Below are positions 1,686 to 37,637 of a DNA stretch of 38,349 nt, piece after piece. Location of the stretch: the NCBI GenBank assembly GCA_002793015.1, contig PFPK01000022.1, positions 1 through 38,349 of the forward strand, given 5' to 3'. The number at the start of each line of letters is the position of its first letter. The first letter of the stretch is position 1. Below the pieces are notes generated by a model that did no database searches, was not told the DNA's origin, and worked only from the letters and a program-made list of their open reading frames with translations. Position numbers and translations under genes: made by a program. Source of the stretch: Candidatus Magasanikbacteria bacterium CG_4_10_14_0_2_um_filter_37_12 (GTDB lineage Bacteria; Patescibacteriota; Patescibacteriia; Magasanikbacterales; UBA922).

Positions 1686-1765
1686 ATAGAACACAGATTG
1701 AACTGATAAAACTGATTAGAACAGATCTATGAAAATCTGTTAGATCTGTTAAATCTGTGTTCTAT
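1686..1765. repeat. Junction hairpin element of degenerate ACAGAT-type repeats
   Basis: Perfect 14-bp inverted repeat ATAGAACACAGATT (1686-1699) / AATCTGTGTTCTAT (1752-1765) with internal degenerate copies. Confidence 0.8.
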
Positions 1766-3141
1766 TAATTATAGAATTTAGAATTAAAATAATCTTTAAG
1801 CTCCCCAATATCCACCCTTTCTTGCTCCATCGTATCACGATCTCTCACCGTAACTTTCTTATCTTCAAGACTATCAAAATCAACAGTCACACAATATGGC
1901 GTACCAATTTCATCTTGCCTTCTATATCTTTTTCCAATACTTCCTGTTTCGTCATGCTGAGTCATCCAAGTACCACGCAAACTATTTTGAATTTCATTAG
2001 ACAAATTCTGCAATGGTTCTTTTTTAGAAAGTGGTAAAATCGCTATCTTGATTGGTGCTAGATCTTTATGAAGACGAAGAACATATTCTTTTTCATGTTT
2101 GGCGTCGTCAGAACCACTGCGAGCATCTATTTCTTCATAAGCATCAATAAGAAAAGCCAAAGTAGCCCGATCAGCTCCGTCTGAAGTCTCAACAATATGG
2201 GGAATAAACTTTTCATTTTTTTCTTGATCAAAATAACTCAAATCTTGCCCACTATATTCACTATGACGAGACAAATCCCAATTTCCTCGATCATGAATAC
2301 CTGCAAGCTCTTTGAATCCCATGCCTGGATAATTGTATTCAATATCCCAAGCTTCAGCTGCATAGTGAGCAAGTTCATCTGATTTGTGTTGTCTAAACTG
2401 CAAATTTTCTTTTTTCATTCCAAAATCCAAATACCACTGCATCCTTGCTTTTTTCCACATCTCAAAAACTTCCTTTTTTTGATCTGGATGAATGAAATAC
2501 TGTTGTTCCATTTGTTCAAACTCGCGTGTTCTGAAAGTAAAATTCCCCGGAGTGATTTCATTTCTAAAAGCCTTTCCAATCTGGGCGACACCAAATGGAA
2601 TTTTCTTTCTCATCGACTGTTGAACATTTAGAAAATTAACATAAATCCCTTGACAAGTCTCTGGTCGTAAATAAATTTGACTGGTGTTATCTTCCAATGC
2701 TCCCATAAAAGTTTTAAACATTAGATTGAACTTTCGTACATCAGTCAAATCTCCTCCACAATCTGGACAGACTACATTATGTTTATCCCACTCGCATGGT
2801 CTGAAATCTGGCTTAATTCCTTTGGCTTCTAGCAAGTGATCTGCCCTCCATCTTTTCTTACAATCTTTACAATCAACCAATGGATCAGTAAACCCAGCAA
2901 TGTGCCCACTAGCCTCCCAAGTCTTTGGATGCATCAAGATAGCAGCGTCCAATCCGACAACATCATTTCTCTCTTGCACCATCGCTTTCCACCAAGCTCT
3001 TTTTACATTATTTTTGAGCTCCACGCCAAGTGGACCGTAATCATAGCATGATGAAAGACCTCCATAAATTTCTGAAGACTGAAAGATGAAGCCACGACGT
3101 TTGGCTAGAGATACTATTGGTTCTAGATTTTCTAAACTCAT
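1765..3141 (-). CDS. glyQS: Glycine--tRNA ligase, alpha2 (homodimeric) type
   Basis: KRRGF, YDYGPLG, LRPETCQG, GKAFRNEITP and FRTREFEQME motifs, plus the C-terminal anticodon-binding domain GSIGKRYRRQDEIGTP. Start at ATG 3141. Confidence 0.97.
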   Translation of the reverse strand: MSLENLEPIVSLAKRRGFIFQSSEIYGGLSSCYDYGPLGVELKNNVKRAWWKAMVQERNDVVGLDAAILMHPKTWEASGHIAGFTDPLVDCKDCKKRWRADHLLEAKGIKPDFRPCEWDKHNVVCPDCGGDLTDVRKFNLMFKTFMGALEDNTSQIYLRPETCQGIYVNFLNVQQSMRKKIPFGVAQIGKAFRNEITPGNFTFRTREFEQMEQQYFIHPDQKKEVFEMWKKARMQWYLDFGMKKENLQFRQHKSDELAHYAAEAWDIEYNYPGMGFKELAGIHDRGNWDLSRHSEYSGQDLSYFDQEKNEKFIPHIVETSDGADRATLAFLIDAYEEIDARSGSDDAKHEKEYVLRLHKDLAPIKIAILPLSKKEPLQNLSNEIQNSLRGTWMTQHDETGSIGKRYRRQDEIGTPYCVTVDFDSLEDKKVTVRDRDTMEQERVDIGELKDYFNSKFYN

Positions 3142-3159
3142 ATATTTTATTTTCTTTAA

Positions 3160-3262
3160 AATACAAGAAACAAAACACAAACAAATCTCAAAAAACAAAT
3201 AATAAATAATAAATTTGGAAACTGGAGCCTGTTATTTATTTGAAAATTGTCTCTTGCTTCTT
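3160..3262. repeat. Junction hairpin element of degenerate heptamers (ACAAGAA/AAATAAT vs TTGTCTC/TTATTTG)
   Basis: A/C-rich arm followed by a T/G-rich arm. ACAAGAAACAA (3163-3173) is nearly complementary to TTGTCTCTTGC (3247-3257). Confidence 0.55.
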
Positions 3263-3292
3263 TGTGGTTAATTATACCAACTATTTTATAAT

Positions 3293-3472
3293 AAAAAAAG
3301 ACAGCCAAAAATACTGTCTCGGGGTCCGATGTTACTTCGGACGGTTCCACCCGAGTTGTCCGACTTGATCTCGGACCACTCTTTGTATTTTCCACGTATA
3401 TCTGCGAATATTCCGCATTCAATCCGCATCTTTACCACCTCCACAGTTGCCAATACTGTTTCATCAGTGGTA
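3293..3472 (-). promoter_or_regulatory. Glycine T-box riboswitch with intrinsic terminator
   Basis: Antiterminator CUCGGG-UGGAACC-GUCCGA..UCGGAC-CCCGAG (3318-3355). Overlapping terminator GAGACAGU..GCUGUCUU+U-tract (3293-3320). K-turn Stem I (3433-3472) with GGC in the loop. Lies upstream of GlyRS. Confidence 0.9.
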
Positions 3473-3478
3473 TTATTT

Positions 3479-3506
3479 ATAATAACATTTTGATGAAGAA
3501 AGTCAA
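3479..3506 (-). promoter_or_regulatory. Sigma70-type promoter of the T-box/glyQS transcript
   Basis: TTGACT-16 nt-TATTAT with an extended TGn. The predicted start site falls at the base of Stem I. Confidence 0.65.
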
Positions 3507-3675
3507 GCGAACGTAAAGTGAACATAAAGCCAAAATATAAAAATACCAATTGAATCATGAAAAACGGAAGTTTCAAAATAGGACAACAATTTTTTAAAAA
3601 AATATAATGAAACCACATACAAAACACCTGGAAAATTTATAAAAAAAATAGCTGTTCTCATAAATTTTTCTATAC

Positions 3676-3707
3676 AAAAAACACCCCAATAAAATTGGAG
3701 TGTTTTT
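3676..3707 (-). terminator. Intrinsic terminator after csp
   Basis: AAAAACACTCCAAT..ATTGGGGTGTTTTTT hairpin with T-tract. Confidence 0.75.
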
Positions 3708-3723
3708 AAACTTGTGAGAGAAA

Positions 3724-3927
3724 TTATGAAATTCTGCTAACTTTAACAGCGTTCAAACCTTTTGGACCTTCAGCGACTTCAAATTCTACTTTGTCACCTT
3801 CACGAAGATCGTTGTACTCTACGTCTACAAGCTCGCTAGAATGAAAGAAAAGATCTTTCTCTTCACCTTCACGCGAAATAAAACCAAACCCCTTATCGGT
3901 AAGTCTGGCAATTATACCTTGTTGCAT
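3724..3927 (-). CDS. csp: Cold-shock domain protein (CspA family)
   Basis: KGFGFI (RNP1), DLFFHSS (RNP2) and EGDKVEFEV..GPKG..A motifs. Confidence 0.95.
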   Translation of the reverse strand: MQQGIIARLTDKGFGFISREGEEKDLFFHSSELVDVEYNDLREGDKVEFEVAEGPKGLNAVKVSRIS

Positions 3928-3929
3928 AA

Positions 3930-4036
3930 ATTGTAAAACAAATGAATAATTTACCCGCCTTGGGCGGGCTCATCAAATCCAGCATAGCCCCCACCCTGGG
4001 TGGGCGGGTCAAACTCGACTATGTTTGTTTTACAAT
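3930..4036 (-). promoter_or_regulatory. Structured csp 5' leader
   Basis: Perfect 13-bp closing stem (3930-3942 / 4024-4036) enclosing two GC-rich hairpins. Confidence 0.6.
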
Positions 4037-4054
4037 ACTGTTTTTGATGGCTAT

Positions 4055-4083
4055 ACAGTACTATATATAAAAAAATTTGTCAA
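4055..4083 (-). promoter_or_regulatory. Sigma70-type promoter of csp
   Basis: TTGACA-17 nt-TACTGT. Confidence 0.6.
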
Positions 4084-4113
4084 TAGACGACTTGGGACGA
4101 TAAGGAAATTCTA

Positions 4114-4551: not shown

Positions 4552-4610
4552 ATTTTATGCTCTACACTCTTAAAATTCTTTACTACATTTCAAACAATGA
4601 GTATCTCTTT

Positions 4611-5162: not shown

Positions 5163-5220
5163 ATTGTTTATAACGTTAAATAATAATTTAGATCTGCATT
5201 AATTATAGGCTACTAGTCGG

Positions 5221-6306: not shown

Positions 6307-6350
6307 AAAATAAAATTAACTTGTCCTGCGAAGTTGTAAGCGAAGCATGG

Positions 6351-7275: not shown

Positions 7276-8421
7276 TCAAAACTCAGACAACAAGATGTTT
7301 AGTGTCTCTGTAGCACATTTCTCCCACGAAAAATTCTCTGCACGTCTGATCCCTTTCTCAACATGAGACATTCTATATTCAATATTCTCTATCAATTTTA
7401 CAACTGCTTCAGCAATATCTTGTATATTTTCAGGATCAACATATACACAAGCATCTTCTCCCACTTCTTCCAAACTACTGCCACACGACGTAACCACAGG
7501 TGTACCACAAGCCATGGCTTCTAAAATCGGAATACCAAATCCTTCATAAAGGCTAGGAAACACAAAAACTTCGGCTACGTTCATAATATACGGGACATCT
7601 TCTTCATCTACCCAACCGGGTGTAATGATATCATTTTTATATTTTGAATTTTCAATCGCTTGTTGAACCTTCTCATAGCCATAACCAGGTTTGCCAACAA
7701 GAATCAATCGGACTTCGGACTTCGGACTTCGGACTCTCAAATTCTCAAAGGCTTGAATTATGTGCCATGTATTTTTCTTCTCCTCAAGTCTCCCAACTGT
7801 CATCAAAAAAGGTTTCTCAATTCCATATTTTTTCAATACTTCGCCAATCTTTATTTTATTCTCAATCTTCCTATATTTTTTATCATACCCGTGATGTACA
7901 ACGTCAACGTCGGCCGAAGTCTGAGAGTCGAAAACTGAAGTCAGTTCATTTTTCGTAAAATGTGAAGGAACAATAATCTTCCATAATTTTTTCAAAGCAA
8001 ATTTTGCACTCCACACCGAATACCACCTCTCAAACCAGTTGTAACTTTCTGGAAATTTGGTGGCAGCGATATCATGAATGGTCACCACGGTTTTCTTCGG
8101 ATGGATAATGGGGAAAACATGTGCTGGAATAAATAACACATCTGGTGGATGACGAAACATCTCCCAGCTCATTCTAATCTGCGTCCAAAATCTCTTCGGT
8201 GGCCAACGTAAAACTTTTTCATTCCACCTATCTGGTAACTTGGCTAACTTCCCTTGCAAGGGTTTGTCAGTATATAAAACAAATTCTAAATTTTCAAAAT
8301 CCCTTACTCCTTTTCTATTACTACTTGATTTCTTTAACTCCTCAATCACAAAATAAGCATACCACTCTACACCCGTCTTATACTCATGATTGGCTCGGCT
8401 AGCGTCGATTCCGATGATCAT
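7276..8421 (-). CDS. Glycosyltransferase family 4 (GT-B)
   Basis: IGIDAS, TGVE.Y, VTIHD, GRLEEKKN and FPSLYEGFGIPILEAMACGTPV motifs. Confidence 0.92.
   Translation of the reverse strand: MIIGIDASRANHEYKTGVEWYAYFVIEELKKSSSNRKGVRDFENLEFVLYTDKPLQGKLAKLPDRWNEKVLRWPPKRFWTQIRMSWEMFRHPPDVLFIPAHVFPIIHPKKTVVTIHDIAATKFPESYNWFERWYSVWSAKFALKKLWKIIVPSHFTKNELTSVFDSQTSADVDVVHHGYDKKYRKIENKIKIGEVLKKYGIEKPFLMTVGRLEEKKNTWHIIQAFENLRVRSPKSEVRLILVGKPGYGYEKVQQAIENSKYKNDIITPGWVDEEDVPYIMNVAEVFVFPSLYEGFGIPILEAMACGTPVVTSCGSSLEEVGEDACVYVDPENIQDIAEAVVKLIENIEYRMSHVEKGIRRAENFSWEKCATETLNILLSEF
7708..7735. repeat. Perfect intragenic tandem heptamer (TCGGACT)x4
   Basis: Four exact copies, translated as VRSPKSEVR in the GT4 protein. 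Confidence 0.95.
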
Positions 8422-9063: not shown

Positions 9064-9360
9064 TTAATTTTTTCCTTTTCTAGAAAACAGCAACAAAATC
9101 AAACAAGACAATACGTAACTCATTACTACACAAGCCAAAAATATCACTGCCCAGCGATTGGCATACCCAAAATCAAAAAATTCTCGATTGTGCATAGACT
9201 GGATACTTTTCCAAAACGAAGATGAAGCAAAACCTGGCATACACTCATGGGCATTGCAACCAATAGTTGTCCAGATAGACAAAAACCACGATGTGATAAA
9301 TACTATAAAAAAAAGCATGATTTTTTGTACGTTTGGTTGAAAGAATTTTTTGAGATGCAT
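9064..9360 (-). CDS. Small two-TM hypothetical membrane protein
   Basis: ATG start 3 nt after the upstream stop; two hydrophobic segments flank a loop with a Cys pair. Confidence 0.6.
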   Translation of the reverse strand: MHLKKFFQPNVQKIMLFFIVFITSWFLSIWTTIGCNAHECMPGFASSSFWKSIQSMHNREFFDFGYANRWAVIFLACVVMSYVLSCLILLLFSRKGKN

Positions 9361-9363
9361 ATT

Positions 9364-9594
9364 TTATAAGTTTGATGTATTTGCCATACAGCCTGCAGCA
9401 TATGCCGAGGCTTCCCCTGCTTTAGTGTCAGCCCATTCTGCAAACACTGCTGCCCTGCCTGCTTTGACCTCTGCTTGTTCGGCATTGTACACTGCTTCCT
9501 GAACATGATTATTGACGACTTCTACTCGAATAATAAGGATCACAAGTAGCACAAAAATAAAAAACTCAGGGGCGTAGGATACGATTTTTTTCAT
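9364..9594 (-). CDS. Small hypothetical protein, N-terminal TM plus Ala-rich helix
   Basis: ATG start, hydrophobic N-terminus, AEQAEVKAGRAA...KAGEASAYAA periodicity. Confidence 0.6.
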   Translation of the reverse strand: MKKIVSYAPEFFIFVLLVILIIRVEVVNNHVQEAVYNAEQAEVKAGRAAVFAEWADTKAGEASAYAAGCMANTSNL

Positions 9595-9689
9595 ATATAT
9601 AAATTAATTAATAAATTACTTTGAATTACCTTTTTATAATGTAATTTATTTTAAAAAAACAGTATTTTTTCCCCTAAATAATAGCTGTC

Positions 9690-9974
9690 TTAATTATTTT
9701 TTGGGACACAATCATTTCCCCATTCATCCATATCGGTTTCGATATCGTATCGACTAAATGGCACAATTTTACAAATATACTCAGGACAATTTTTGGCGTT
9801 AGATGATTGAAATTGTTCTCTACAATAAATTTCCTTATCCTCTTTTGAGGCATTTTGCTGTATTTTATTCATGTTTAAATTTGATATTTTTTTGACTGTA
9901 ATCCAACTTATTCCTGCAATAATAAACAATACAACTATCAAAGAAACAATAATCTTTATATATTTTACTTTCAT
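9690..9974 (-). CDS. Small membrane-anchored/secreted Cys-containing hypothetical protein
   Basis: Likely start ATG 9974 (MKVKYIK); one TM helix, then four Cys in the C-terminal part. Confidence 0.6.
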   Translation of the reverse strand: MKVKYIKIIVSLIVVLFIIAGISWITVKKISNLNMNKIQQNASKEDKEIYCREQFQSSNAKNCPEYICKIVPFSRYDIETDMDEWGNDCVPKNN

Positions 9975-9995
9975 AATTTTAATCAATGATATAAA

Positions 9996-10077
9996 CCCTA
10001 GCCCCGATAAATCGAGATCTGGGAACCTGCAGTCAAGCAGGTTAAACCACACCCTCGTCCCATACCAAAGTACGAGG
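9996..10077 (-). other. Unassigned three-hairpin structured element
   Basis: Consecutive stems at 10053-10077, 10024-10043 and 9996-10023; a GC-rich island in AT-rich DNA. Confidence 0.45.
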
Positions 10078-10294: not shown

Positions 10295-11395
10295 TTAATA
10301 CAAATTTTTATAACCTTGGTATTTTACATCCTCCCCCACCATCTCAGTCTTCACTGTGTTCAATATCAAACTCTTATCTACTCCTCCAACCCCCCTACCG
10401 CCAACCACAGGCACAGCACTGACGCCTCCAATAATCTTCGGAGCGATATAAAATAAAACTCGATCAACAAGCAAAGGATCAAGTAAAGCATCGTCCACAA
10501 AGTAACCGTGTGTACCACTGCCACCTTCCACATACAGGTGTTGGATATTATATTCTTTACCTAGATATTGGAGTAATTTTTTTAGAGAAACTTTTTTGGG
10601 ACCAAAAGATTTGAACTCTACCATGGCTTTTTGAAATTTGTTTTTGTTTTTTTCTGAAGCCAAATTGGTACAAACCACAAAAACATTCTGATCTCGAAAG
10701 ACATCCAAATTAGTATCCAAATCCAAAGTCGGATCAATAATCACCCGCAGTAAATTCTTTTTTTTAAATTTCCCATGTGAAGCCAACTCTGGATTGTCGG
10801 CCCGCACAGTCCCAGATCCGACCAAGACGGCATCACACATACTCCTCTCTATACGAGCATCTTTGCGAGCTTTTTCGCCAGTGATCCATTGAGATTGTCC
10901 TGTCTTCGTCGCCACTCTCCCATCCAGACTAACCCCAGCTTTGAGAGTTACATATGGTAAGCCTGTAGTCATCCACTTGAAATAAGACTGCATAAATATG
11001 TTTATTTCTTTATAATCTACAGAATTTTTGGAAATATACTCCACTTCAATATTATTTTTTTTCAAAATATCATAGCCTTTACCATATACTTTTGGAAAAG
11101 AATCTTTCATGCCAATCACTACTTTTCGTATTCCAGAAGAAACCAACAGATCAGTACAAGGAGGAGTCTTACCAAAATGACAGCAAGGTTCTAAAGTGAC
11201 ATACATAGTAGCACCTTGCACACCAAATTTGGCTTTATCTATAGCCATAACCTCGGCATGTGGCCCACCATACTTTTTGTGCCAGCCTTCTCCAACTATC
11301 TGTCCATCTTTTACCAACACAGCACCAACACTAGGATTTGGCGAAGTATGCCCAATCCCCTTTTTTGCTAATTGAATGGCGCGTTGCATAAACAT
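10295..11395 (-). CDS. ribD: Bifunctional pyrimidine deaminase/reductase RibD
   Basis: SPNP.VG, HAE, LEPCCHFGKTPPC zinc motif; SLDG, WITG and VEGG in the reductase domain. Confidence 0.95.
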   Translation of the reverse strand: MFMQRAIQLAKKGIGHTSPNPSVGAVLVKDGQIVGEGWHKKYGGPHAEVMAIDKAKFGVQGATMYVTLEPCCHFGKTPPCTDLLVSSGIRKVVIGMKDSFPKVYGKGYDILKKNNIEVEYISKNSVDYKEINIFMQSYFKWMTTGLPYVTLKAGVSLDGRVATKTGQSQWITGEKARKDARIERSMCDAVLVGSGTVRADNPELASHGKFKKKNLLRVIIDPTLDLDTNLDVFRDQNVFVVCTNLASEKNKNKFQKAMVEFKSFGPKKVSLKKLLQYLGKEYNIQHLYVEGGSGTHGYFVDDALLDPLLVDRVLFYIAPKIIGGVSAVPVVGGRGVGGVDKSLILNTVKTEMVGEDVKYQGYKNLY

Positions 11396-11397
11396 AT

Positions 11398-11502
11398 CGA
11401 AAATTTGAAATTTGAAATTCTTAATTTGAAAACAATTTTTAATAATTTAATGATTCAATTTTAAAATTTTATTCATTTATAATTGTTTGTAAATTTCAAA
11501 TT
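11398..11502. repeat. Junction hairpin element of AAATTTG-type heptamers
   Basis: AAATTTG tandem arm and a complementary AAATTTCAAATT arm overlapping the ribBA stop. Similar to 16954-17108. Confidence 0.6.
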
Positions 11503-12705
11503 ATTCAACAAGTGCCCCATCTTGTCCTTCTTTGTCTGCAAATATTGATCATCGACACCATTGGCTGAGATCTCAATAGACACTTGTTCCACCACGTCAA
11601 TCCCATATCCTGTGATACCACCAATTTTTTTAGGATTATTGGTCATCAAACGAACTTTTTTGACACCAAGATCTCGGATAATCTGAGCACCAATCCCATA
11701 CTCACGCAAATCTTCTGGTAAGCCTAAAGCTAAATTTGCTTCGACAGTGTCAAGACCTTTTTTGTGCTGTAATTTATAAGCTTTGATCTTATTGATCAAA
11801 CCAATTCCTCGACCTTCTTGCTCCATATAGAGCACTACCCCTTTTCCTTCTTTTTCAATATCAGTCATGGCTTTGTGTAATTGTTGTCCACAATCACAAT
11901 GGAGAGAACCAAAAACATCTCCGGTAAGGCACTCTGAATGCACCCGAATTAAAACTGGAGTATTGCCACTCACTTTTCCTTTTATAAGAGCCGTATGCAA
12001 AGTATCGTGAAGTAAATCTTTGTAAACTTTCATTTCCCAAACACCTGTCTTGGTCTGTAATTCTGTTTCTGCAGCCAATTCAATAAATGATTCATTTTTA
12101 TGTCTATAGGCAATCAAATCTGTCACAGAGACCATGACCAAATTATGTTCTTTGGCAAACCTAAACAACTCTGGCAAACGCATCATCGTCCCATCACCAT
12201 TCATTAATTCACTAATTACTGCCACAGGCTTCACCCCAGCCAAAATACACAAATCAACAGAAGCCTCTGTATGCCCGGCTCGCCATAGCACTCCGCCATG
12301 CTGAGCTCTCAATGGAAAAACGTAACCAGGTCGAAAAAGATTTTCAGGATTGGCATCTTCAACAATAGCTGTCTTGATTGTTGCCACTCGGTCCTTAGCA
12401 AAAATACCTGTAGTTGCACCTTCTTTAGCCTCAACAGTGACTGCAAAAGCAGCTTCTAATTTGGAAATATTTTTGGCTACCGTTGGTGGAAGATCTAATT
12501 TGTCGGCCAACTTATTTTTTATGAAAAGACAAACAACTCCGCCAGTGTGACGAATAATAAAAGCCATTTGCTCTTCTGTAAGATGCTCTGCTGAGACCAC
12601 CAAATCCCTTTCATTTTCTCGATCTTTGTCATCAACGATGATAACTATCTCCCCACGTTTGATAGCATCAATAGCATTTTTTATTGAATCAAAATTTGTT
12701 TTCAT
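11473..12705 (-). CDS. ribBA: RibBA fusion (DHBP synthase / GTP cyclohydrolase II); RibB domain degenerate
   Basis: GCH II motifs RVHSECLTGD, CDCG, QEGRGIGL, DTVEAN and TNNP are intact. RibB motifs are altered (RENERD, TTGIFA, RPGYVFPL). Confidence 0.93.
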   Translation of the reverse strand: MKTNFDSIKNAIDAIKRGEIVIIVDDKDRENERDLVVSAEHLTEEQMAFIIRHTGGVVCLFIKNKLADKLDLPPTVAKNISKLEAAFAVTVEAKEGATTGIFAKDRVATIKTAIVEDANPENLFRPGYVFPLRAQHGGVLWRAGHTEASVDLCILAGVKPVAVISELMNGDGTMMRLPELFRFAKEHNLVMVSVTDLIAYRHKNESFIELAAETELQTKTGVWEMKVYKDLLHDTLHTALIKGKVSGNTPVLIRVHSECLTGDVFGSLHCDCGQQLHKAMTDIEKEGKGVVLYMEQEGRGIGLINKIKAYKLQHKKGLDTVEANLALGLPEDLREYGIGAQIIRDLGVKKVRLMTNNPKKIGGITGYGIDVVEQVSIEISANGVDDQYLQTKKDKMGHLLNNLKFTNNYK

Positions 12706-12754
12706 AATTCATAATCCACACAAAAACTATAAACTACAAACTATGAACCAAGGA

Positions 12755-13762: not shown

Positions 13763-13774
13763 AATTTTTTAGAG

Positions 13775-13848
13775 TAAGCAGAATAAGCAGAATAGGCTAA
13801 GTACACAGAATAAGCTATACGAATAACTTAATCTGCTTAATCTGCTTA
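13775..13848. repeat. Junction hairpin element of TAAGCAGAA 9-mers
   Basis: Inverted repeat 13775-13794 / 13829-13848 with 18 of 20 positions complementary. Confidence 0.8.
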
Positions 13849-13854
13849 ATCCCC

Positions 13855-15351
13855 TTAATCTGCTTTCAAGCTTATATTAAACTTCCGATCCAACCTCAAA
13901 TCACCTTTATATTCATAAACTCTATCCCCCCAGTGTTGTTCTTCTTCTGCTGGTTTGGCAGATTGAATAATCTTACCAAAATCAAGGTGGAGCGTCAAAC
14001 CGTGATTAATAGTCCCAATCTGTTTTTGTACAAGCAAATTATAAGTATTGCTAACAATATCTTCCGCTATATTGGTCGGTAATTGATAGATGAATGACAA
14101 TGATTTTATCTCACCAGGCTCTACTGCAAAATATACTCCGAACCACTGCTTGCCCAGCTCTTCGCCACTATCTACTTCGTCTATACCAATACTCTGACCG
14201 TTTTTCCTTTTCCCAATTATAGAAACCAATTTTGAATCTTTTGGAACATAAACTCTGGTATAGGTCAAGTATGTACTAGTACGCCAATCAAAAGTGCCAC
14301 CATGGAAATACTCCATAGTCGTTGCAGCCAAATAACGATCTGACTCAGATTCATGAGAAGCCGGTCTCTTGGAAATTGTGTAGTTAAGTGATCTTGTGAT
14401 AGCATGGTCAGTCTTGAGAGCACCGAGATTAGCGTCAACCCACAGCACATAGTCATGATTTGTTTCAACCACGTCGGCAGATAACCCATAGTTATCCACC
14501 AGTGTCTGTAGATCACTAGCCTGAGAAAAGAAAACAAGATGCTTTTCATGGGCTAGACTAAAGAGAACATCATAGTAATCATCATATCTCTCAAATAAAT
14601 TATCTTTAATATGTCCCACCAATGCTTCCATAAATGGTCTGATTATGGATTTCCTATCTTCGAACGCCATTCCTTTGGATTCATAGCCATACTCTACTTC
14701 ATATTCTAGTTGCTCAGTCACATTCTCAGAAGTAAATTCTATTCCGTCAATAGTAAAATCACCTGTAATATTCATCAATCTTTCTAGTACAGTTGGTGTG
14801 ATACCCACGACAACATCAATATCGTCTGCATTGACACCGCCCTCACCTTTATATAACTCCAAAACTTTCTTAGCACTTTCTCCAAAATCAGGAGACCAAT
14901 TACCGTCACTAAAATACCATTGACTTACTCCTAAATATTTACTAATTGGCTCTGGTGGAACTGGTTGCCAATTGGCTAGAGTCTTTTTATCAAGAACACC
15001 ACTACCTTCTACTTCCACAATTTCCATCTTTCCCCTGTCCACAGTCACCACTGCGTATACACCAATAAATCCCCCGCCTGGTCGAAGTTCAGTATTATTT
15101 TGAAAAAGAAATAAATAAGTCTTTGGTTTAGTAAAACCAAAGACTACAGGCACGACATCCAAAATTTTGTTTTGTCCTTCATTCAATTCTGCTCGAATGG
15201 TATTTTGCAAAAAATTATTGTCTATCACACTAGACAAATCAAAATTTCGAATAGCATAATAACTGAAAACCAAAAAAGTAATCAGCACAACAAAACAAGA
15301 ACCAAAAAACCATTTCCAAATGTTAGATTTTTTTCTTTTTTTAAAAAACAT
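13855..15351 (-). CDS. DUF4012 domain membrane-anchored protein
   Basis: YLFLFQNNTELRPGGGFIG, D.NWSPDF and DANLGALKTD motifs with an N-terminal TM. Likely start ATG 15351. Confidence 0.85.
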   Translation of the reverse strand: MFFKKRKKSNIWKWFFGSCFVVLITFLVFSYYAIRNFDLSSVIDNNFLQNTIRAELNEGQNKILDVVPVVFGFTKPKTYLFLFQNNTELRPGGGFIGVYAVVTVDRGKMEIVEVEGSGVLDKKTLANWQPVPPEPISKYLGVSQWYFSDGNWSPDFGESAKKVLELYKGEGGVNADDIDVVVGITPTVLERLMNITGDFTIDGIEFTSENVTEQLEYEVEYGYESKGMAFEDRKSIIRPFMEALVGHIKDNLFERYDDYYDVLFSLAHEKHLVFFSQASDLQTLVDNYGLSADVVETNHDYVLWVDANLGALKTDHAITRSLNYTISKRPASHESESDRYLAATTMEYFHGGTFDWRTSTYLTYTRVYVPKDSKLVSIIGKRKNGQSIGIDEVDSGEELGKQWFGVYFAVEPGEIKSLSFIYQLPTNIAEDIVSNTYNLLVQKQIGTINHGLTLHLDFGKIIQSAKPAEEEQHWGDRVYEYKGDLRLDRKFNISLKAD

Positions 15352-15360: not shown

Positions 15361-15450
15361 ACTTGAACACTCAAACACTTTATCACCTAAGAACATCTGC
15401 AAGTAATGTCCCAGGAATAACAAAATACTAAAGTGTTTAGGTGTTCAAGT
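15361..15450. repeat. Junction hairpin element of RAACACTT 8-mers (empty form)
   Basis: Inverted repeat 15361-15382 / 15429-15450 with 20 of 22 positions complementary. Confidence 0.85.
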
Positions 15451-16946: not shown

Positions 16947-16953
16947 AATTTTT

Positions 16954-17108
16954 AATTTGAAATTTTTAATTTTAAAAACAATTTTCAATGAGTTAATTTT
17001 AATACATAAAACTTAGACATTATCAGGTATCGTATAACACAAGTCTACAACATTGTAAATTTATAAATTAAAAATTGTTTGAAAATTGTAAATTATAAAT
17101 TTCAAATT
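16954..17108. repeat. Junction hairpin element of AAATTTG/AAATTGT heptamers
   Basis: Inverted repeat 16954-16972 / 17090-17108 with 18 of 19 positions complementary. Confidence 0.75.
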
Positions 17109-17382
17109 AATAAACTATTTTAAACTCCCCAAACTCACTCTCCTCGACCTCCTTCCATTCTTCTATCACCTTCTCAACTTTAGCGTACTCTGATCCCTCT
17201 TTACACCATTTTAGCATTTTTTTCAAGTCTTCTTTCTCTCCTTCTACTAAAATCTCAACGGTTTTGTCTGGACAATTTTTGACCCAGCCCTTCAAGCCAA
17301 ATTCACGAGCCTTTTGGCAAGCTGTGTCTCGAAAAAATACTCCTTGGACTTGACCATGAATGGTGAGGTGGAGTTGGTTCAT
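17107..17382 (-). CDS. acyP: Acylphosphatase
   Basis: G.VQGVFFR and GWVKN..D..VE motifs. Confidence 0.93.
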   Translation of the reverse strand: MNQLHLTIHGQVQGVFFRDTACQKAREFGLKGWVKNCPDKTVEILVEGEKEDLKKMLKWCKEGSEYAKVEKVIEEWKEVEESEFGEFKIVY

Positions 17383-19039: not shown

Positions 19040-19085
19040 AATTACTTATAAAACTTAGACTACTTAGTCAGCTCAGAAAACTTAA

Positions 19086-19682: not shown

Positions 19683-19839
19683 ATTTTTTATAAATCATAA
19701 ATTTAACCTTGCCTGCCAGCAGGCAAAAATCATAAATCATAAACAATTCCAATCTTTTAGCTTCTTAGACATTTTGGACTTCTCCAGTATTCCATGGTCC
19801 ACCTGCTAATAGGCAGACTTTCCAGCTTTCCTAAAGTAT

Positions 19840-19883: not shown

Positions 19884-22127
19884 ATGAATAATGTTGACAT
19901 ACGAGAATTTTTCGTTGAAGGAGACGACCAAAAAACCTCACACGTCTTGTTACACATCACCGAGCCATCCACTGCCGAAGAAATAGAAAAGGGCTATTTT
20001 TTAGCATTGTGTGAGATAAATAATGGCTCTATTGAACATATTGAACAGCTCCAACAAATCATTGATGACATCGAAGCTGGATATTATAACACCGCCAATG
20101 AAGATGGCGATAAAAATCCTTTTGAGCTTACCTTAGAATACATCAACAGAAAAAACCTAGAAATATCAGACAAAAAAATAGCAATTCATTGTTTGGTAGC
20201 AGTAGTAAAAAATAATACTATCTCAATTAGTTACCATGGAAATCCCCATGCTATATTATTTTATGAACAAAAAAATCAAATCCATACTTTCAATATTCTA
20301 AAAGAACAGGCCGAAAACAACGATAGCGACGCCCTATTTTCTTCTGTTATTGAAGGCAACGTTAATCCTGGAGACAAAATATTTGTTGCCACCCCCCAGG
20401 TCACTGATCATTTTTCTTACGACAGACTTGAAAAAATAATCACCTCAAGAAGCATACCTCAAAGTGTAGATCACATAGAAAAAGTCTTAAAAAATCTTCA
20501 TGGTCACTCTTCATTTGGAGGTATTTTATGTGAATATCTATCAAATAAAAATCCACAAGAAACAGAAAAAGAACCTCAATCCAAAAAATTAGATCAGAGT
20601 TCTGCCGAATCCTTAGACCAATTACTTCAATCTGAAAGAAATACCGCTGAAACCCTCTCTCCTCCTTTGTTCAGTCTTTTCAGGAAAAAGACCAAAAAAG
20701 AAGAAAGTATCAATAAAACAAGAATCTCCCTGAAAAAAAGAAGAAAGATAGTGAGAGACAATGTCACAGAAACCAACTACAGACCACACCAAGACAGCGA
20801 GATACGTACAATTAAGTCCACCACACTAGTTTTGGTTGGTAGAACCTTAGTAGAAGGCGGATTATGGTTAATTAATTTAATAAAAAAACTGGCTATTGTA
20901 ATTGGAAAAATATTCATCATGATTTTTATTTTAATTACTAATAAAAATAATAGCAGGCGTGAAGCAATCCAATCTTTTAAAAATACAGGCCACAATCTCG
21001 GACAATTCATCAAAGAATTACCAATTGCAAGTAAAATCCTCCTCTTTGGCACAATCATCGCTGCCATACTTTTTATTAGCAGTATTGCTGGGATGAAAAT
21101 AAATGAAGAGCGTCTTGTCAGGGAACAAAACTACAACAACCATATTCAAGCTATCGAAGACAAAATCGCCATAGCTGAAGCCAGTATAATCTATAACGAT
21201 AACAGCAAGGCATTTACAACACTCAAAGAAGCCCAAGAATTGACCGACGCTATCTCCGACAATGGAAAAGAGTCAAAAGAATTACAACAACAATTTTCTG
21301 TCTCTATTGAAGAAAAATTAATTAAACTAAGAAATGTCACCGTAGTTTCTCCACAACTTCTAATTGATCTCCAAAATCAATATGGAGAAATAAATACCAA
21401 AAAAATGACCAGAATCGACGACACACTGGTTGCTTACGGACCAGAAGATCAATCATTTTATAGTTTTGAAATTAATTCAAAAAATAGCGAGACACATCTC
21501 CATGATATTGTCTCAAACATCACAGGGGGTTCCACTCCAAAAGAACAAGACAAGATTGTTTTCTTATCCGGAAACCAAGACATCTTTGAATACAACAAAG
21601 AAACAAAAACTTTATCAAAGAATGATATTGCTTACCCAGACGACAAACCCCAAATTACCGACATTTTTATTTACAATCTCCGCCTATATGCGATCGATAA
21701 AAAAAATAATCAAATTTACAAACATAACAAAACAAAAACCGGCTATGACAAAGGAAGCCCTTGGATAAAAACAAATAACGTTGACCTAAGTGATGCGGTA
21801 TCTCTTGCTGTTGATGGTGATATCTTTGTTTTAAAAGAAAATGGAGAAATTCTCAAATTTGTCAGTGGAAAAAAAGAAGAATTCACCATCACTGGTCTGG
21901 ATCCAGAATTATCAAAGCCAAGCATAATCTGGACATACAATGATGTACAAAATATCTACATCCTTGAGCCGTCTGTAAAACGTATTGTGGTATTAAACAA
22001 AGAAGGAAAGCTGCTCAAACAATACACTGTCAACGAATGGCAAGAGCCAACTGGAATGATTGTCGACGAAGCCAAAAAAACTATTTACGTTCTAGACCAA
22101 AACAAGATTTATTCGTTTGGAATCTAA
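19884..22127 (+). CDS. Large membrane protein: PP2C-like N-terminal fold, TM helices, C-terminal beta-propeller
   Basis: 747-aa ORF with central hydrophobic segments and C-terminal repeats (LYAIDK, AVDGDIFVL, IYILEP, IYVLD). Domain calls are inferred from sequence pattern. Confidence 0.65.
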   Translation: MNNVDIREFFVEGDDQKTSHVLLHITEPSTAEEIEKGYFLALCEINNGSIEHIEQLQQIIDDIEAGYYNTANEDGDKNPFELTLEYINRKNLEISDKKIAIHCLVAVVKNNTISISYHGNPHAILFYEQKNQIHTFNILKEQAENNDSDALFSSVIEGNVNPGDKIFVATPQVTDHFSYDRLEKIITSRSIPQSVDHIEKVLKNLHGHSSFGGILCEYLSNKNPQETEKEPQSKKLDQSSAESLDQLLQSERNTAETLSPPLFSLFRKKTKKEESINKTRISLKKRRKIVRDNVTETNYRPHQDSEIRTIKSTTLVLVGRTLVEGGLWLINLIKKLAIVIGKIFIMIFILITNKNNSRREAIQSFKNTGHNLGQFIKELPIASKILLFGTIIAAILFISSIAGMKINEERLVREQNYNNHIQAIEDKIAIAEASIIYNDNSKAFTTLKEAQELTDAISDNGKESKELQQQFSVSIEEKLIKLRNVTVVSPQLLIDLQNQYGEINTKKMTRIDDTLVAYGPEDQSFYSFEINSKNSETHLHDIVSNITGGSTPKEQDKIVFLSGNQDIFEYNKETKTLSKNDIAYPDDKPQITDIFIYNLRLYAIDKKNNQIYKHNKTKTGYDKGSPWIKTNNVDLSDAVSLAVDGDIFVLKENGEILKFVSGKKEEFTITGLDPELSKPSIIWTYNDVQNIYILEPSVKRIVVLNKEGKLLKQYTVNEWQEPTGMIVDEAKKTIYVLDQNKIYSFGI

Positions 22128-22181
22128 AAATATAATAAGCATACTCCGAGATGACAGATGAAAACTTAGTATGAGTTCAAT

Positions 22182-22216
22182 AAAAAAAAATCAGCCACTT
22201 TCATGGCTGATTTTTT
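22182..22216. terminator. Bidirectional intrinsic terminator
   Basis: A9-TCAGCCA..TGGCTGA-T6 between convergent genes. Confidence 0.85.
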
Positions 22217-22256
22217 GTTACTTATTTGTGATGGTTTGTATCAAAATCGATGCTCC

Positions 22257-22682
22257 TTATTTTAAGACTACCTTTCCACCGGCTTCTTCGATTTGTTTCT
22301 TAAGCTCTTCTGCTTCAGCCTTTGGTACATTCTCCTTTATAGCTTTTGGAGCTCCGTCTACCAATGCTTTAGCATCAGCAAGACCTAAGCCAGTAGCAGC
22401 TTTCACTGCCTTGATAACAGCAATCTTGGTTGTGCCAGCATCAGTAAGCTCAACAGTAAATTCTGTCTTCTCTTCTGTTCCAGCGTCACCAGCAACACCA
22501 ACAACAGCTGGACCAGCCATCATCATAGCAGGTGCGGAAGCTGAAACGCCAAACTTGTCTTCCAAAATCTTCACTAATTCAGCTAGATCAAGTACAGACA
22601 TTTTCTCTACTTCTTCTACAAGAGATTTAAATTTGGCAGGCACTTCTACTACTTTTTCTTCTGTTGTGTTTTCTTCTGTCAT
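22257..22682 (-). CDS. rplL: 50S ribosomal protein L7/L12
   Basis: [25 protein letters not shown] and [15 protein letters not shown] motifs. Confidence 0.97.
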
Positions 22683-23239: not shown

Positions 23240-23312
23240 AATCTTAGTTTTCAAAGTTATTTAAGTTTGTTTAGTTTTCTAAGTTATCTTTTTAACCTAG
23301 AAACTATCCAAC
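23240..23312. repeat. Degenerate AGTTTTCTA 9-mer repeat element
   Basis: About five degenerate 9-mers followed by a short complementary arm (TAGAAACT). Confidence 0.5.
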
Positions 23313-24973: not shown

Positions 24974-24974
24974 G

Positions 24975-32019: not shown

Positions 32020-32125
32020 ATTTTTAAATTCAAAAGGTATGATAACCTCAGGACACCTGTTCTCCTTTGGTAGAGGCAGGTGTTAAACTATGCTCTTATT
32101 CTACGCAATTACAGACGAAGCGGAA

Positions 32126-34147: not shown

Positions 34148-34153
34148 AAAAAA

Positions 34154-35683
34154 TTATAGTACATGTAGGCTGTCCGCTTTACCATACACTGTGGGATATT
34201 TTAAGATTTCTGTGTCTGCCTTAATTGCACCTTTTGATTTAAAATTCATATCAATCACAGAGGATCCAGGAATAACAAACCGCTTCATAAAATTATTTGA
34301 GGAAAAAATCTTATCAGTGGTATTTCCAGAAATAGTGTAGAACAAATCGTCTATATATTGATAATATATCTGATTTTTAGTGGGGTGTTCGACAATAGAT
34401 CCTCTTGGGTACTTATATCCAACGCTACTAAATACTTCCAGGCCGAACAAAAGGTTCCCCGACAAAGCGTCTTGCAAATCATTTAGACCATCACCATTGG
34501 TGTCTTTGGACTTTGGGTCTGTAAACCAGTAAAAAATTTCTTCATGGTCAGTCAAACCATCTCCATCTGAGTCAACTTTAAAATCACTGGTGCCATATTC
34601 TTTTTCAGTATCTTGGTCTACGCCGTCATGATCTTTGTCAACTATGCCCCCCTCTTTATCTTCTACATCATAGCCCCTAATATTATAAAAACTAATCTGC
34701 GATGATTCAAGCGTAATAACACGTTTGGTCCAATTGTCACCATAAAGTAATTTGGCTTCTATTTCTGAACGAATTGGACGCAGACGACATCCTGGCTCTG
34801 GGGCATATACTTTTGGGGAATTTTCAAAACTTACTAACCATGTTCCTGACCTAACACAAATTGGTTTACCAACTAAATACTGTCCAAGTTTGGTGTTACT
34901 AACATAAATAACACCGGCCATATCATTGTACCAAGAATGAAAAACTGCTGGATGAGAAAATGGGTGGATGTACCCATCAAAACCAAAATAATAAATTTGG
35001 GTGTCTTTGCCTTTAATAAGACTGCCCTCTGGAATATATGATACAGGCTGGGTATAATTTATTGATTTATTTAGTGTTTTAGTTTTACCATTAGCATCCT
35101 TGAACTGAACATAAACAATCTTATTATCAGTCCCAGGAGATAACATCCAGTATATGCTGTCTGTGACAGGAAAACCATCAAACAAAAAAAAATCTTTTTC
35201 ATTGCTAACAAATATGGTTTCAACACCTTTGGAGTACTCAAAATCAAGAATCACAGACCTCTTGTTTGTCTCCTCATCCTCATCATTGATAAAAAAGTCC
35301 ACGTTCATGTCGTCTGGAACATATAGACTTATCTGGTCTGTATATACTTTTTTGGAATCTACTTTTCCACCTTTGAATTTTGCGTATACAGTCTTAATGC
35401 CACCTCCAAAATTGAGATACCAAACTTTGGTCTTGGCATAAGCCTCCCACTTGGCATCTAGCAAATCTGGTTCATTGGAAATCATCATTTGAGTTGCTCC
35501 CTCTGGTGCTGAAATATAGAGAGTTACTTGTCTAGTATAAACATTCGGATTGTTCTTGTTAATATTAAAATAAACCTCTGGTGAAGCAGTAAAAGCTGTG
35601 CCAAAAAAAACAAATAGTGCTAACAAAACACCACCAATTAGTGAAGTGAAAAGTATAACTTGATTTTTTAGCTTTAATGACAT
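34154..35683 (-). CDS. Secreted multi-repeat surface protein with Ca-binding DxDxDG repeats
   Basis: Signal/TM, two beta-rich repeats (SN...W.L..G...K.VY..FK), GSLIKG..IYY repeats and DKDHDG/DSDGDG/DTNGDG. Likely start ATG 35683. Confidence 0.75.
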   Translation of the reverse strand: MSLKLKNQVILFTSLIGGVLLALFVFFGTAFTASPEVYFNINKNNPNVYTRQVTLYISAPEGATQMMISNEPDLLDAKWEAYAKTKVWYLNFGGGIKTVYAKFKGGKVDSKKVYTDQISLYVPDDMNVDFFINDEDEETNKRSVILDFEYSKGVETIFVSNEKDFFLFDGFPVTDSIYWMLSPGTDNKIVYVQFKDANGKTKTLNKSINYTQPVSYIPEGSLIKGKDTQIYYFGFDGYIHPFSHPAVFHSWYNDMAGVIYVSNTKLGQYLVGKPICVRSGTWLVSFENSPKVYAPEPGCRLRPIRSEIEAKLLYGDNWTKRVITLESSQISFYNIRGYDVEDKEGGIVDKDHDGVDQDTEKEYGTSDFKVDSDGDGLTDHEEIFYWFTDPKSKDTNGDGLNDLQDALSGNLLFGLEVFSSVGYKYPRGSIVEHPTKNQIYYQYIDDLFYTISGNTTDKIFSSNNFMKRFVIPGSSVIDMNFKSKGAIKADTEILKYPTVYGKADSLHVL

Positions 35684-35722
35684 ATAATTTCTACAAAATA
35701 GTATACTAAAAAATAGACCAAC

Positions 35723-37114
35723 ATGCAATTATTTTATAGAATTAGACAGTTGATTCTAGTGGCTGGAGATCTACTAGTTTTTATTTTTTGTTTTTGGCTT
35801 AGTCTGGCTATCCGATATTTTGAAATTCCCTCTCTGGAGACATTTGAGCATCATGTAGCCATATTACCAATATTGCTGGCGCTCTGGTTAGTATTGAACT
35901 ATATCAATGGGCTATATGATTTGGTGAGATGTGGCAATATCAAAAATTCTTCCAGAAGACTCCTCGAAACAGCAATGATAGCCTTGGTGGTAAGCATGGT
36001 TTTATTTTACATATTGCCAAAAATAAATTTGACCCCAAAGACTATACTGGTGCTGGCTGTGTTTATTGGCTACAGTCTAGTCTTCATTTGGCGACTACTC
36101 TATGAATATTCTATTGGTGATAAAGGTTTGAAAGAGAAAATCCTCTTTGTTGGTCATACCAAAGAAATGGTTGAACTAGTAAATATCATAACCAAATTAC
36201 CCCAAAAAGGATACCAAATTTGTGCATGGATAGACCCCACCAAAAGCATTGACAAAGAAAAATATAAATCTATTGAAATCTATGAGAGGTTCCAAACTAT
36301 CAGACCGCTCATCACCAATCATCATATTAGCACTGTTGTAATAGCTCCTGACTTACGCCACCAAGAAGAAGTACTGAGAGAATTATACGAACTATTATTT
36401 TGGGATGTTCGCATCATGGACATGACTTCTTTTTATGAGACGATTACTGGTCGCATTCCACCTTCTACTTTTTCAGAAGGATGGTTTTTGGATCATATTG
36501 GAAACAATGATTTGCCAGTCTACAAAAAAATAAGAATACTAATAGATTATATTGCCGCTTTATTGCTTGGAATCATATTTGTCATATTATTTCCTCTAAT
36601 TGTTATTGGCATAAAAACCACTTCTAAGGGCCCAATTTTTTTCAAACAAAAAAGAGTTGGTAAATATGGAAAACATTTTTTTCTCTACAAATTTCGCTCC
36701 ATGTATTCTCTGGCAGAAGATGGAAGTGCCGAGATGGACGGCGCCCAATTTGCCACCAAAAATGACGAGAGAGCTACAACGTTTGGCAGATTTTTACGAA
36801 AAGTCCGACTGGATGAGTTGCCACAGTTTATCAATATGCTAAAACGTGATATCACGCTTATTGGTCCACGTCCAGAAAGACCAGAGATAGTGGAAAAGTT
36901 GGAAGAAAAGATGCCGTACTATTCGCTTCGCCATGTAATTCGTCCTGGTCTAACAAGTTGGGCAGTGCTCCACCAAAATTATACTGACAACATAGAAACG
37001 TCTTTACAGAAGTTACAATATGATCTGTATTATATAAAAAACAGATCACTTTTACTTGATCTGTCGATCTTACTCAAAACTGTTAATCTAATTCTGAGAG
37101 GGATGGGACAATAG
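35723..37114 (+). CDS. Polyprenyl-phosphate sugar phosphotransferase (WcaJ/WbaP-like)
   Basis: GPIFFKQKRVG, KFRSM, LDELPQ, GPRPERP and YDLYYIKN motifs with N-terminal TM helices. Confidence 0.93.
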   Translation: MQLFYRIRQLILVAGDLLVFIFCFWLSLAIRYFEIPSLETFEHHVAILPILLALWLVLNYINGLYDLVRCGNIKNSSRRLLETAMIALVVSMVLFYILPKINLTPKTILVLAVFIGYSLVFIWRLLYEYSIGDKGLKEKILFVGHTKEMVELVNIITKLPQKGYQICAWIDPTKSIDKEKYKSIEIYERFQTIRPLITNHHISTVVIAPDLRHQEEVLRELYELLFWDVRIMDMTSFYETITGRIPPSTFSEGWFLDHIGNNDLPVYKKIRILIDYIAALLLGIIFVILFPLIVIGIKTTSKGPIFFKQKRVGKYGKHFFLYKFRSMYSLAEDGSAEMDGAQFATKNDERATTFGRFLRKVRLDELPQFINMLKRDITLIGPRPERPEIVEKLEEKMPYYSLRHVIRPGLTSWAVLHQNYTDNIETSLQKLQYDLYYIKNRSLLLDLSILLKTVNLILRGMGQ

Positions 37115-37123
37115 ATTTACCTT

Positions 37124-37637
37124 ATTACTTGAACACTTTAGCACCTGAACACTTGAAAATTATGAACACTGAATCACTAAAACTAGTTTAGTGCCCATAT
37201 TTCTGCTTCTTCTATAGTCTTAAAAAAATTTGTTACAAAAGTATTTTCTGAATCGTCTTGTTTTACACTTACTTCGTCGTTGATAAAGGCAAACTTCTCT
37301 ACACCCACATCGTTGTAAACAGCCGCGATGTTTTTGTTTCTCCAAGCAGTTAAATTTGGAGTAAGCTCTACTATATAATGCCGTAAATCAACAATAATTC
37401 TCTTGCTTTCCAATTGCTTTACTATTTCAATATAAGCTAGAGCTTCTTTTTTAAACTGATCTTCGCTAAAACTTGCGACCTACTTAAAAATCAAATACAA
37501 AATCCCATCTTCTTCAAGCACCCTGATAAAATTGTCATCAATGTAATTTACCATAATATGAAATATCCAAATGTTAAAGTGTTTAAGTTTTAAAATGATA
37601 ACGTGCTCAAGTGATAAAGTGTTTGGGTGCTAAGGTG
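37124..37637. mobile_element. Candidate cargo-carrying inverted-repeat element (RAACACTT family)
   Basis: Arms 37134-37154 / 37617-37637 (18 of 21 complementary) flank one short gene. ATTACTTGAACACT is shared with the empty element at 15358. Mobility is inferred only. Confidence 0.5.
37183..37554 (-). pseudogene. SpoIIAA/STAS-like small protein interrupted by in-frame TAG (37480-37482)
   Basis: ATG 37554 gives MVNYIDD...LIFK*VASF...IIVDLR...KFAFI...FKTIEEAEIW, 124 codons with one internal stop. Confidence 0.65.

Follow-up and report, generated by a model that had tools for sequence, protein, structure and literature searches.

The window considered here is positions 1 to 38,349 of the forward strand of contig PFPK01000022.1, from Candidatus Magasanikbacteria bacterium CG_4_10_14_0_2_um_filter_37_12 (assembly GCA_002793015.1). 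The genome (G000; the window is its contig C17) comprises 871 kb on 48 contigs, a small size that suggests Patescibacteria, is scored 97% complete and has a GC content of 36-40%. Among the genes of the window are glyQS, ribD, ribBA, mreB, tsaB and rplJ, and Pfam agrees with the gene names given in an earlier annotation made from the letters alone (the original prediction). That annotation named 11 elements in the gaps between these genes, seven of them described as hairpins in which an arm of degenerate tandem repeats of 7-9 nt is followed by a spacer and the reverse-complement arm. G000 was compared with 40 relatives that are about 70-95% identical to it at the protein level (41 genomes in all), among them one congeneric genome, G001. 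At the gathering score, Rfam found just one tRNA and the L10 leader in the window. Four sequencing runs, all labelled groundwater metagenome, contain at least half of the stretch; one is possibly its source, and no RNA run was listed.

Tandem arrays were located with Tandem Repeats Finder, and inverted-repeat pairs were ranked by length across the window. Arrays of period 7-9 were found in all seven elements that had been described as two-armed with differing repeat units, and six of the seven are within the 11 longest inverted-repeat pairs, which bears the description out; the seventh, 3160-3262, is absent from the top 25 pairs listed. Folding z-scores were computed for the mRNA strand against dinucleotide shuffles, and 8/11 named elements scored -2.2 or lower (Table 1). 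The remaining four elements had been called one-armed remnants. This is right for 19040-19085, which does not fold above shuffles, and wrong for 12706-12754, 19692-19744 and 23240-23312, which fold with two arms. The element given as 37124-37637 is not empty, as its spacer encloses a 123-codon reading frame interrupted by a single in-frame stop. Six-frame searches of the genome with PF05635, PF13366, TIGR02436, TIGR04256 and PF04480 gave no match to this frame; in the control, Bacteroides thetaiotaomicron, PF05635 did find a match. At ribBA-ribD and DUF4012-mreB the upstream gene continues into the arm, and its stop codon is arm-derived. Instead of separating two genes, 3160-3262 and 23240-23312 lie where a leader terminator is followed by a start codon.

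Table 1. Repeat elements and related features of the window (arm identity in parentheses).
Feature	Position	Strand	Arms	Fold z	Context
Hairpin, 9-nt ACAGAT-type arms, without gene	1686..1765	-	1686-1717/1734-1765 (84%)	-5.5	Between glyQS stop and TMEM43 start
Weak degenerate hairpin	3160..3262	-		-2.2	Between terminator of T-box-like leader and glyQS start
Perfect 4 x 7-nt array, in frame	7708..7735	-			Loop of GT4 glycosyltransferase; outside the original list
AAATTTG-family element	11398..11502	-	11416-11450/11468-11502 (71%)	+0.6	ribBA-ribD junction; ribBA runs into 5' arm
Short perfect hairpin, 7-nt units	12706..12754	-	Two arms	-5.5	mreB-ribBA
9-nt-unit hairpin	13772..13865	-	13772-13799/13824-13851 (82%)	-4.8	DUF4012-mreB; DUF4012 stop codon in 5' arm
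8-nt RAACACTT-family hairpin	15361..15450	-	15361-15382/15429-15450 (91%)	-5.2	GT2-DUF4012
AAATTTG-family element, full length about 165 nt	16949..17113	-	16949-16972/17090-17113 (92%)	-3.8 (full length); -0.6 (clipped)	acyP-GT2
Degenerate remnant	19040..19085	-		+0.2	Before tsaB; fold not above shuffles
7-nt-unit hairpin with nested small GC-rich palindrome	19692..19744	-		-2.7	Before 198-aa open reading frame (ORF)
9-nt-unit hairpin	23240..23312	-		-3.0	Between L10-leader terminator and rplJ start
8-nt-unit arms around cargo frame	37119..37644	-	37119-37166/37589-37636 (71%)	-1.9	Directly after epimerase stop; convergent junction
Cargo frame, 123 codons, in-frame stop at codon 25	37183..37554	-			ORF reading; putative cargo

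The elements are real as a class. The genome holds 57 intergenic arrays of period 6-10 (35 have period 7), and 10 shuffles gave 0-3 each. Gene calls were made mechanically by script, so the split between coding and intergenic sequence is approximate. Among 820 junction windows, 30 have an arm-to-arm score of at least 16, where 2.7 are expected from mismatched junction pairs. The arms are degenerate tandem arrays of 7-9-nt units belonging to at least five families, and inspection by eye found no common sequence rule for the units. As had been claimed, they are not ordinary terminators: scans for intrinsic terminators, which covered the window except for the element-free interval 20001-22499, found no GC stem plus U-tract in the seven main elements. 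One match of the terminator scan lies inside 19692-19744.

In 20 folded junctions of 74-232 nt, a sample chosen by windows anchored on stop and start, the stem ends fall close to the stop of the gene before (median -2.5 nt) and to the start of the gene after (median -1 nt). The original prediction noted for four co-directional junctions that folding would bring stop and start together. Selection for this is not needed, since insertion into a junction of a few bases yields the same flush geometry anyway.

To follow the elements between species, syntenic junctions were compared in 39 relatives. Most of the gaps that hold an element in G000 are only a few bases wide elsewhere: GT2-DUF4012 measures at most 27 nt in 21/27 relatives, DUF4012-mreB at most 30 nt in 21/34, mreB-ribBA at most 30 nt in 5/6, ribBA-ribD at most 27 nt in 7/7 more distant relatives and the junction before tsaB at most 33 nt in 11/11 others. 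The denominators for the first two junctions include start-calling artefacts (one GT2-DUF4012 gap and three long DUF4012-mreB gaps), and several of the long exceptions are unrelated hairpins. TMEM43 was found in 1/5 genomes searched, so glyQS-TMEM43 is almost without an orthologous junction. G001 retains the element family of the window at acyP-GT2, GT2-DUF4012, mreB-ribBA and ribBA-ribD. Its mreB-ribBA unit is identical to that of 12706-12754, and its GT2-DUF4012 element belongs to the RAACACTT family too, with a higher unit number. Different elements are found in G001 at DUF4012-mreB (an unrelated hairpin), before tsaB (a full AAATTTG element), before glyQS (a different 7-nt element in place of 3160-3262), before the 198-aa ORF and before rplJ. 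At the corresponding G001 junction, the 37124-37637 element is missing. In another relative, G013, a filled four-helix-bundle cassette follows directly after the mreB stop, with another unit and another downstream gene.

Such cassettes are also present in G000, outside the window. Its cargo genes are four four-helix-bundle genes (contigs C1, C7, C28 and C36) and two GxxExxY genes, and the cassettes are flanked by protein genes. The original prediction had stated that similar repeats flank genes of these two families in other genomes and noted none in the window. Complementary flanks were found at 47/51 four-helix-bundle or GxxExxY loci, a subset of the profile-search matches in G000 and its relatives, with the 95th percentile of mismatched pairs as the cut-off. 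The four misses are one G000 gene and three G001 loci broken by a miniature transposable element with inverted repeats (MITE). For four elements of the window, an arm matches cassette arms with a score higher than the best shuffle. The 3' arm of 1686-1765, an element with a sister copy on G000 C1, scores 19-22 against three GxxExxY cassettes of relative G024 (shuffle maximum 17), and the other three match four-helix-bundle cassettes of G001. Here the 3' arm of ribBA-ribD scores 26 (shuffle maximum 18) and that of DUF4012-mreB 18 (shuffle maximum 15), and the acyP-GT2 element, an arm of which matches such a cassette, is 75-80% identical across its length to three G001 copies. For 3160-3262 and GT2-DUF4012 no cassette match exceeded shuffles. 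The tie of the family to cassettes of the intervening-sequence type is well-supported.

Comparison of G001 with G000 also revealed cassettes that have lost their cargo. The nusG-rplK junction of G001 holds both arms and a complete gene, and that of G000 holds arms of the same unit and only the last 29 codons (59% identical, E 3e-10). Both flanking genes are adjacent in G000 for 8/16 G001 cassettes, and in none of these eight is the cargo intact in G000. One site retains the stub just described, one has collapsed arms (after gatA), one an arm trace, two have other repeat elements, two short gaps and one an unrelated spacer. The atpA-atpG gap of G001 holds an unrelated gene, so the G000 cassette there has no counterpart for comparison. 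Tight, replaced, collapsed, stub-bearing and cargo-filled states have thus been met at orthologous junctions, and the proposal that the elements are footprints of something mobile has held up. Judged from these alignments, the elements are lineage-specific insertions that are gained and lost between related species.

Copies without a gene may have a history of their own. Two gene-less G001 copies at different junctions are 85% identical over 166 nt, loop included. This is suggestive of gene-less copies moving on their own; the pair would fit copying of an empty element, and also parallel deletion from one cassette family. AAATTTG copies are generally 70-89% alike, and one pair reaches 95.5% over 89 nt, partly in a larger duplicated block. 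A duplicated block of about 200 nt with an AAATTTG arm is present at G000 C22:27440-27640 and C33:7100-7400, and C14 shares 89 nt of it at 95.5%.

Array load was examined across genomes in the syntenic region. Genomes carrying four-helix-bundle genes have 37 arrays in 300 kb, with at least one in 15/17 genomes, and non-carriers have 4 arrays in 384 kb, in 3/22 genomes. This count leaves out G000 and G001, and one G013 array is a cassette arm within the counted region. Array load correlates with cargo gene count (rho 0.71) and little with GC content (rho 0.11). On a tree built from five proteins the carriers are dispersed (13 changes against a shuffle mean of 13.9), and in 8/8 sister pairs that differ in carriage the carrier has more arrays (p 0.008); three of these pairs have support below 0.8 and two rest on loci shorter than 7 kb. 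Two genomes, G035 and G037, have only weak TIGR02436 matches (E 1e-4 and 2e-5) and are treated as non-carriers in the array count and the tree. The AAATTTG family occurs in 8/41 genomes, where at most 20 candidates were scored per genome, and GxxExxY in 10/41; all of these genomes are carriers.

Arrays are present inside genes as well. In the interiors of coding sequences, 54 arrays of period 7-8 were counted; five codon shuffles gave 0-2 each. One of them lies in a GT4 glycosyltransferase loop in the window (Table 1). Arrays with differing units occupy this loop in 5/14 carrier sequences against 0/14 others, and loop length is about constant. A Fisher test of the GT4-loop comparison, in which G035 and G037 count as carriers, gave 8/21 against 0/20 (p 0.003). 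In 32/44 cases an in-gene unit differs from some cassette unit by at most one mismatch, where chance would give 46% (p 0.0004); the match is modest.

The cassettes resemble several published systems. In Coxiella burnetii the 23S rRNA intervening sequence (IVS; helix 45) has a 28-bp stem, its RNase III site contains tandem heptamers that vary in number, and its S23p ORF is decaying, with deletions (PMC4990558). ORFs of the S23p/PF05635 family (IVP ORFs) also occur in rRNA insertions of bacteria of the candidate phyla radiation (PMC11270868). The long terminal stem, variable tandem heptamers, co-directional four-helix-bundle ORF with deletions and patchy distribution of the Coxiella IVS (PMC4990558) all recur here. 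The optional co-directional PF05635 ORF in the loop is a feature of cassettes elsewhere in G000 and its relatives, and none lies in the window. Unlike the IVS, the elements described here do not sit inside rRNA but in leaders, next to tRNAs and in gaps that separate protein genes; they have many arm families (7, 8 and 9 nt) and a second cargo, GxxExxY, and are mostly gene-less.

Heptamer repeats without a known cargo have been reported too. Geobacter metallireducens has paired sites of four 7/8-nt units on opposite strands (Gmet_I classes and Gmet_H4; PMC2700814), which are like ours in having about four tandem units, opposite-strand pairing, variable distance, locations between and within genes and insertion sequences (IS) nearby. 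Unlike ours, they are described as putative IHF/HU binding or regulatory sites, and the text covered contains no cargo gene or gain-loss analysis; the supplementary alignments of that paper may bear on cargo (PMC2700814). The convergent pairs of GGGAATC heptamers in Xanthomonas and the heptamer repeats in Nostoc (PMC4692102) likewise form intergenic arrays near ORF ends, often as inverted pairs, and their length differs between close species. They differ in having one G-rich unit per genome, a G-quadruplex focus, conserved locations and, in the text covered, no link to cargo (PMC4692102). The arrays of G000 match the STRR-like heptamer class of long simple-sequence repeats, with about 3-5 degenerate 7-8-nt units, over-representation, intergenic and intragenic copies and frequent opposite-strand pairs. 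REPINs (PMC3337134) are also non-autonomous intergenic arm-spacer-arm hairpins; unlike REPINs and their RAYTs, the present elements have degenerate tandem arms and no linked Y1 transposase, and their seemingly autonomous form encodes no transposase. The PF05635 family has a homologue in Avd of diversity-generating retroelements, with which the cargo shares its protein fold (PMC10053308). A G000 cargo protein matches the Avd model weakly (E 3e-6, far below the cut-off), and unlike in those retroelements no reverse transcriptase gene of G000 lies beside the four-helix-bundle genes, and the two show no co-occurrence over the 41 genomes. No paper on arm-bracketed four-helix-bundle/GxxExxY cassettes between protein genes was found in a search that left most subscription journals outside.

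Taken together, these observations suggest that the hairpins of the window are probably gene-less, decaying forms of small cassettes resembling ORF-bearing rRNA intervening sequences. In a complete cassette, about four units of 7-9 nt would make up the 5' arm; a small cargo gene in the same direction, of the four-helix-bundle or GxxExxY kind, would come next, and the reverse-complement arm last. Comparison of relatives indicates that cassettes arrive in single lineages, in gaps or beside tRNAs where relatives have only a few bases. Internal deletion would then drop the cargo, leaving arms with a stub and later a bare hairpin, a course seen once clearly and once weakly; the bare hairpin would decay or be overwritten by another family. 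Arm and cargo families keep together in different genera, and the arms may therefore act as cis ends; copies lacking a gene might be copied in trans. Persistence may depend on the transcript folding the insert into a long stem, which would either keep stop and start close or be cut by RNase III harmlessly for both genes. The latter would fit the Coxiella precedent and the presence of an RNase III gene, and would correspond to the earlier suggestion that the elements may be processed out of mRNA. Least securely, spread might require the four-helix-bundle protein as an Avd-like nucleic-acid-binding pentamer together with a host DNA enzyme, and involve no dedicated transposase or reverse transcriptase.

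Several results weigh against insertion and decay of such cassettes. No cargo-filled allele with matching arms was found at the window's own junctions in 40 relatives; of the states that the original prediction expected from aligning junctions, empty and variant ones were recovered and same-arm filled ones were not. In the small cassette set, 7/11 window elements have no arm match beyond shuffles, and the ribBA-ribD element folds no better than shuffles. Preference for co-directional junctions is absent (32/42 high-scoring windows against 617/820 of all junctions), element copies also adjoin tRNA genes, and arrays occur in genes, so that the targeting of operon junctions originally proposed was not upheld. 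Two of the 17 carriers have no array in 20-27 kb. DUF559 genes occur in 13/41 genomes, 11 of them carriers; because this family crowds into carrier genomes too, the tie between arrays and cargo genes could stem from a permissive host. It is difficult to see how the 54 single in-frame arrays would arise from a complete cassette inserted into a gene. A whole cassette is an unlikely intermediate within a needed gene, so simple insertion and decay would leave them unexplained. Finally, no mobilising enzyme was identified in a survey of Y1 transposase and reverse transcriptase over the 41 genomes: Y1 occurs in 7/19 carriers and 6/22 others, reverse transcriptase in 10/19 and 11/22, and neither tracks the elements. 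Reverse transcriptase as the mobiliser was rejected for this lack of co-occurrence, and Y1/RAYT transposase since it does not track the elements. Neither enzyme was found in G013, which has 12 cassettes and is 99% complete. In G000, Y1 is a short fragment only, without such arms, and the reverse transcriptase genes (C23:22466-23074, E 7.5e-20; C13:3986-4585, E 2.5e-7) lie on other contigs than the four-helix-bundle genes. The arms are shared with cargo cassettes that encode no transposase, as judged from a search for Y1 but not DDE transposases.

Could a state of the host explain the repeats without any cassette? Slippage or repair biased toward 7-nt units might make arrays and inverted pairs everywhere, selection keeping those in gaps and loops, with four-helix-bundle, GxxExxY and DUF559 genes as passengers in permissive genomes. 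We regard this as possible but somewhat unlikely. The in-frame arrays (54 against 0-2), the differing units at one GT4 loop, the co-occurrence of DUF559 and the modest in-gene unit match (32/44 against 46%) are all as expected from it, and polymerase slippage is a hypothesis put forward in PMC4692102. Slippage, however, makes direct repeats, not inverted arms paired around a gene at 47/51 loci. Arm and cargo families are shared together between genera, one 7-nt step within a gene would be a frameshift, and the nusG-rplK stub is a deletion from a filled cassette. Another reading starts from the cargo: the Avd-like four-helix-bundle protein could, together with a polymerase or repair enzyme of the host, belong to a repeat-writing system not described so far. 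Such a system would add about four 7-9-nt units per step, as paired arms carrying the protein's own gene and others into junctions and as single in-frame blocks overwriting protein loops; we consider it speculative and unlikely to be correct.

Selection for host regulation, with the elements serving as stems for RNase III processing or stability or as nucleoid-protein sites, would account for strong stems at most sites, for retention of the element family at four junctions in G001 and for the presence of RNase III, and IHF/HU sites were proposed for the Geobacter pairs (PMC2700814). The same gene strings have tight junctions in most relatives, though, unrelated elements swap at one junction within the genus, and IS elements and MITEs insert in the loops, which makes this quite improbable. 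RNase III itself was found in 5/5 genomes searched, carriers and non-carriers alike. Mobilisation as REPIN-like elements by a RAYT/IS200-type Y1 transposase is very unlikely. The arm-spacer-arm hairpins do look like REPINs (PMC3337134), a Y1 gene of relative G028 is bracketed by inverted repeats and a G001 Y1 gene lies in an AAATTTG loop; but this G001 copy keeps its own IS ends inside the loop, G000 has only the short fragment, Y1 does not track the elements, and the arms are degenerate arrays of many families, not one conserved palindrome. That the elements are ordinary terminators or chance low complexity of AT-rich DNA is refuted for the class and as a general account is extremely improbable, given the arrays (57 against 0-3), the paired windows (30 against 2.7), the lack of an influence of GC content across genomes and no terminator-like site in the seven main elements. 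Two elements do fold no better than shuffles in this genome of 36-40% GC, and this explanation may hold for 19040-19085 alone.

Should the hairpins be decayed cassettes, three separate puzzles would be connected: the PF05635 and GxxExxY families, which lack a function, the way in which rRNA intervening sequences arise and spread, and the unexplained excess of heptamers in many bacteria. If instead repeats are written, rRNA intervening sequences would be a special case and the heptamer excess a by-product. Housekeeping genes in streamlined genomes also gain stop codons and peptides in loops from these arms. The Coxiella IVS and the Geobacter and Xanthomonas heptamer pairs were already in print; new here are the filled-to-stub allele pair, the match of arm family to cargo family, the sister-pair test and the negative reverse transcriptase and Y1 results.

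Other mobile elements were seen within these hairpins. Nearly identical MITE copies of about 135 nt, with a GC-rich palindrome in the middle, lie inside 4/16 G001 cargo cassettes, and also in two gene-less AAATTTG loops and one convergent junction of G001 (loci L140, L157, L162, L095, L097, L108 and L110). At L092 (G001:C3:41887-42560) an IS200-like Y1 transposase element lies in the loop of an AAATTTG hairpin, and its gene-less relative L156 is built likewise. At L145 (G028:C32) a RAYT-like Y1 gene lies between inverted arms with a period of about 16 nt, which adjoin the stop of the gene upstream and the ATG of the one downstream without a gap; G028 has no four-helix-bundle matches.

Repeat hairpins also occur on either side of the RNase III gene of G000 (C6:400-1345), and AAATTTG elements lie between the RNase III gene and tRNA-Lys in both G000 and G013 (L130). 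A nucleotidyltransferase-like gene at G000 C1:14077-14589 (HxGH motif by eye) is preceded by an ACAGAT-family hairpin and has a further arm at its 3' end and an in-frame palindromic insert.

In the window, a T-box-like leader with a short stem I precedes glyQS (3317-3473, minus strand; E 9e-8, 41.5 bits against a gathering score of 93) and is followed by a terminator at 3298-3320. The gene after glyQS (540-1670) belongs to the TMEM43 family; in most relatives this place is taken by a gene of about 420 aa. Five copies of a 7-nt unit, outside the original list, span its stop codon at 515-548. Between HAD and ribD (9064-10052) are two ORFs of 98 and 120 aa without a Pfam or NCBIfam match; the G001 counterparts of the flanking genes are about 10 nt apart. 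The ribBA-ribD pair (10295-12705) lies within a conserved DUF4012-mreB-GT4 string in some relatives only. Matches to ribD, several of them weak, were found in 16/41 genomes, none of these outside the family.

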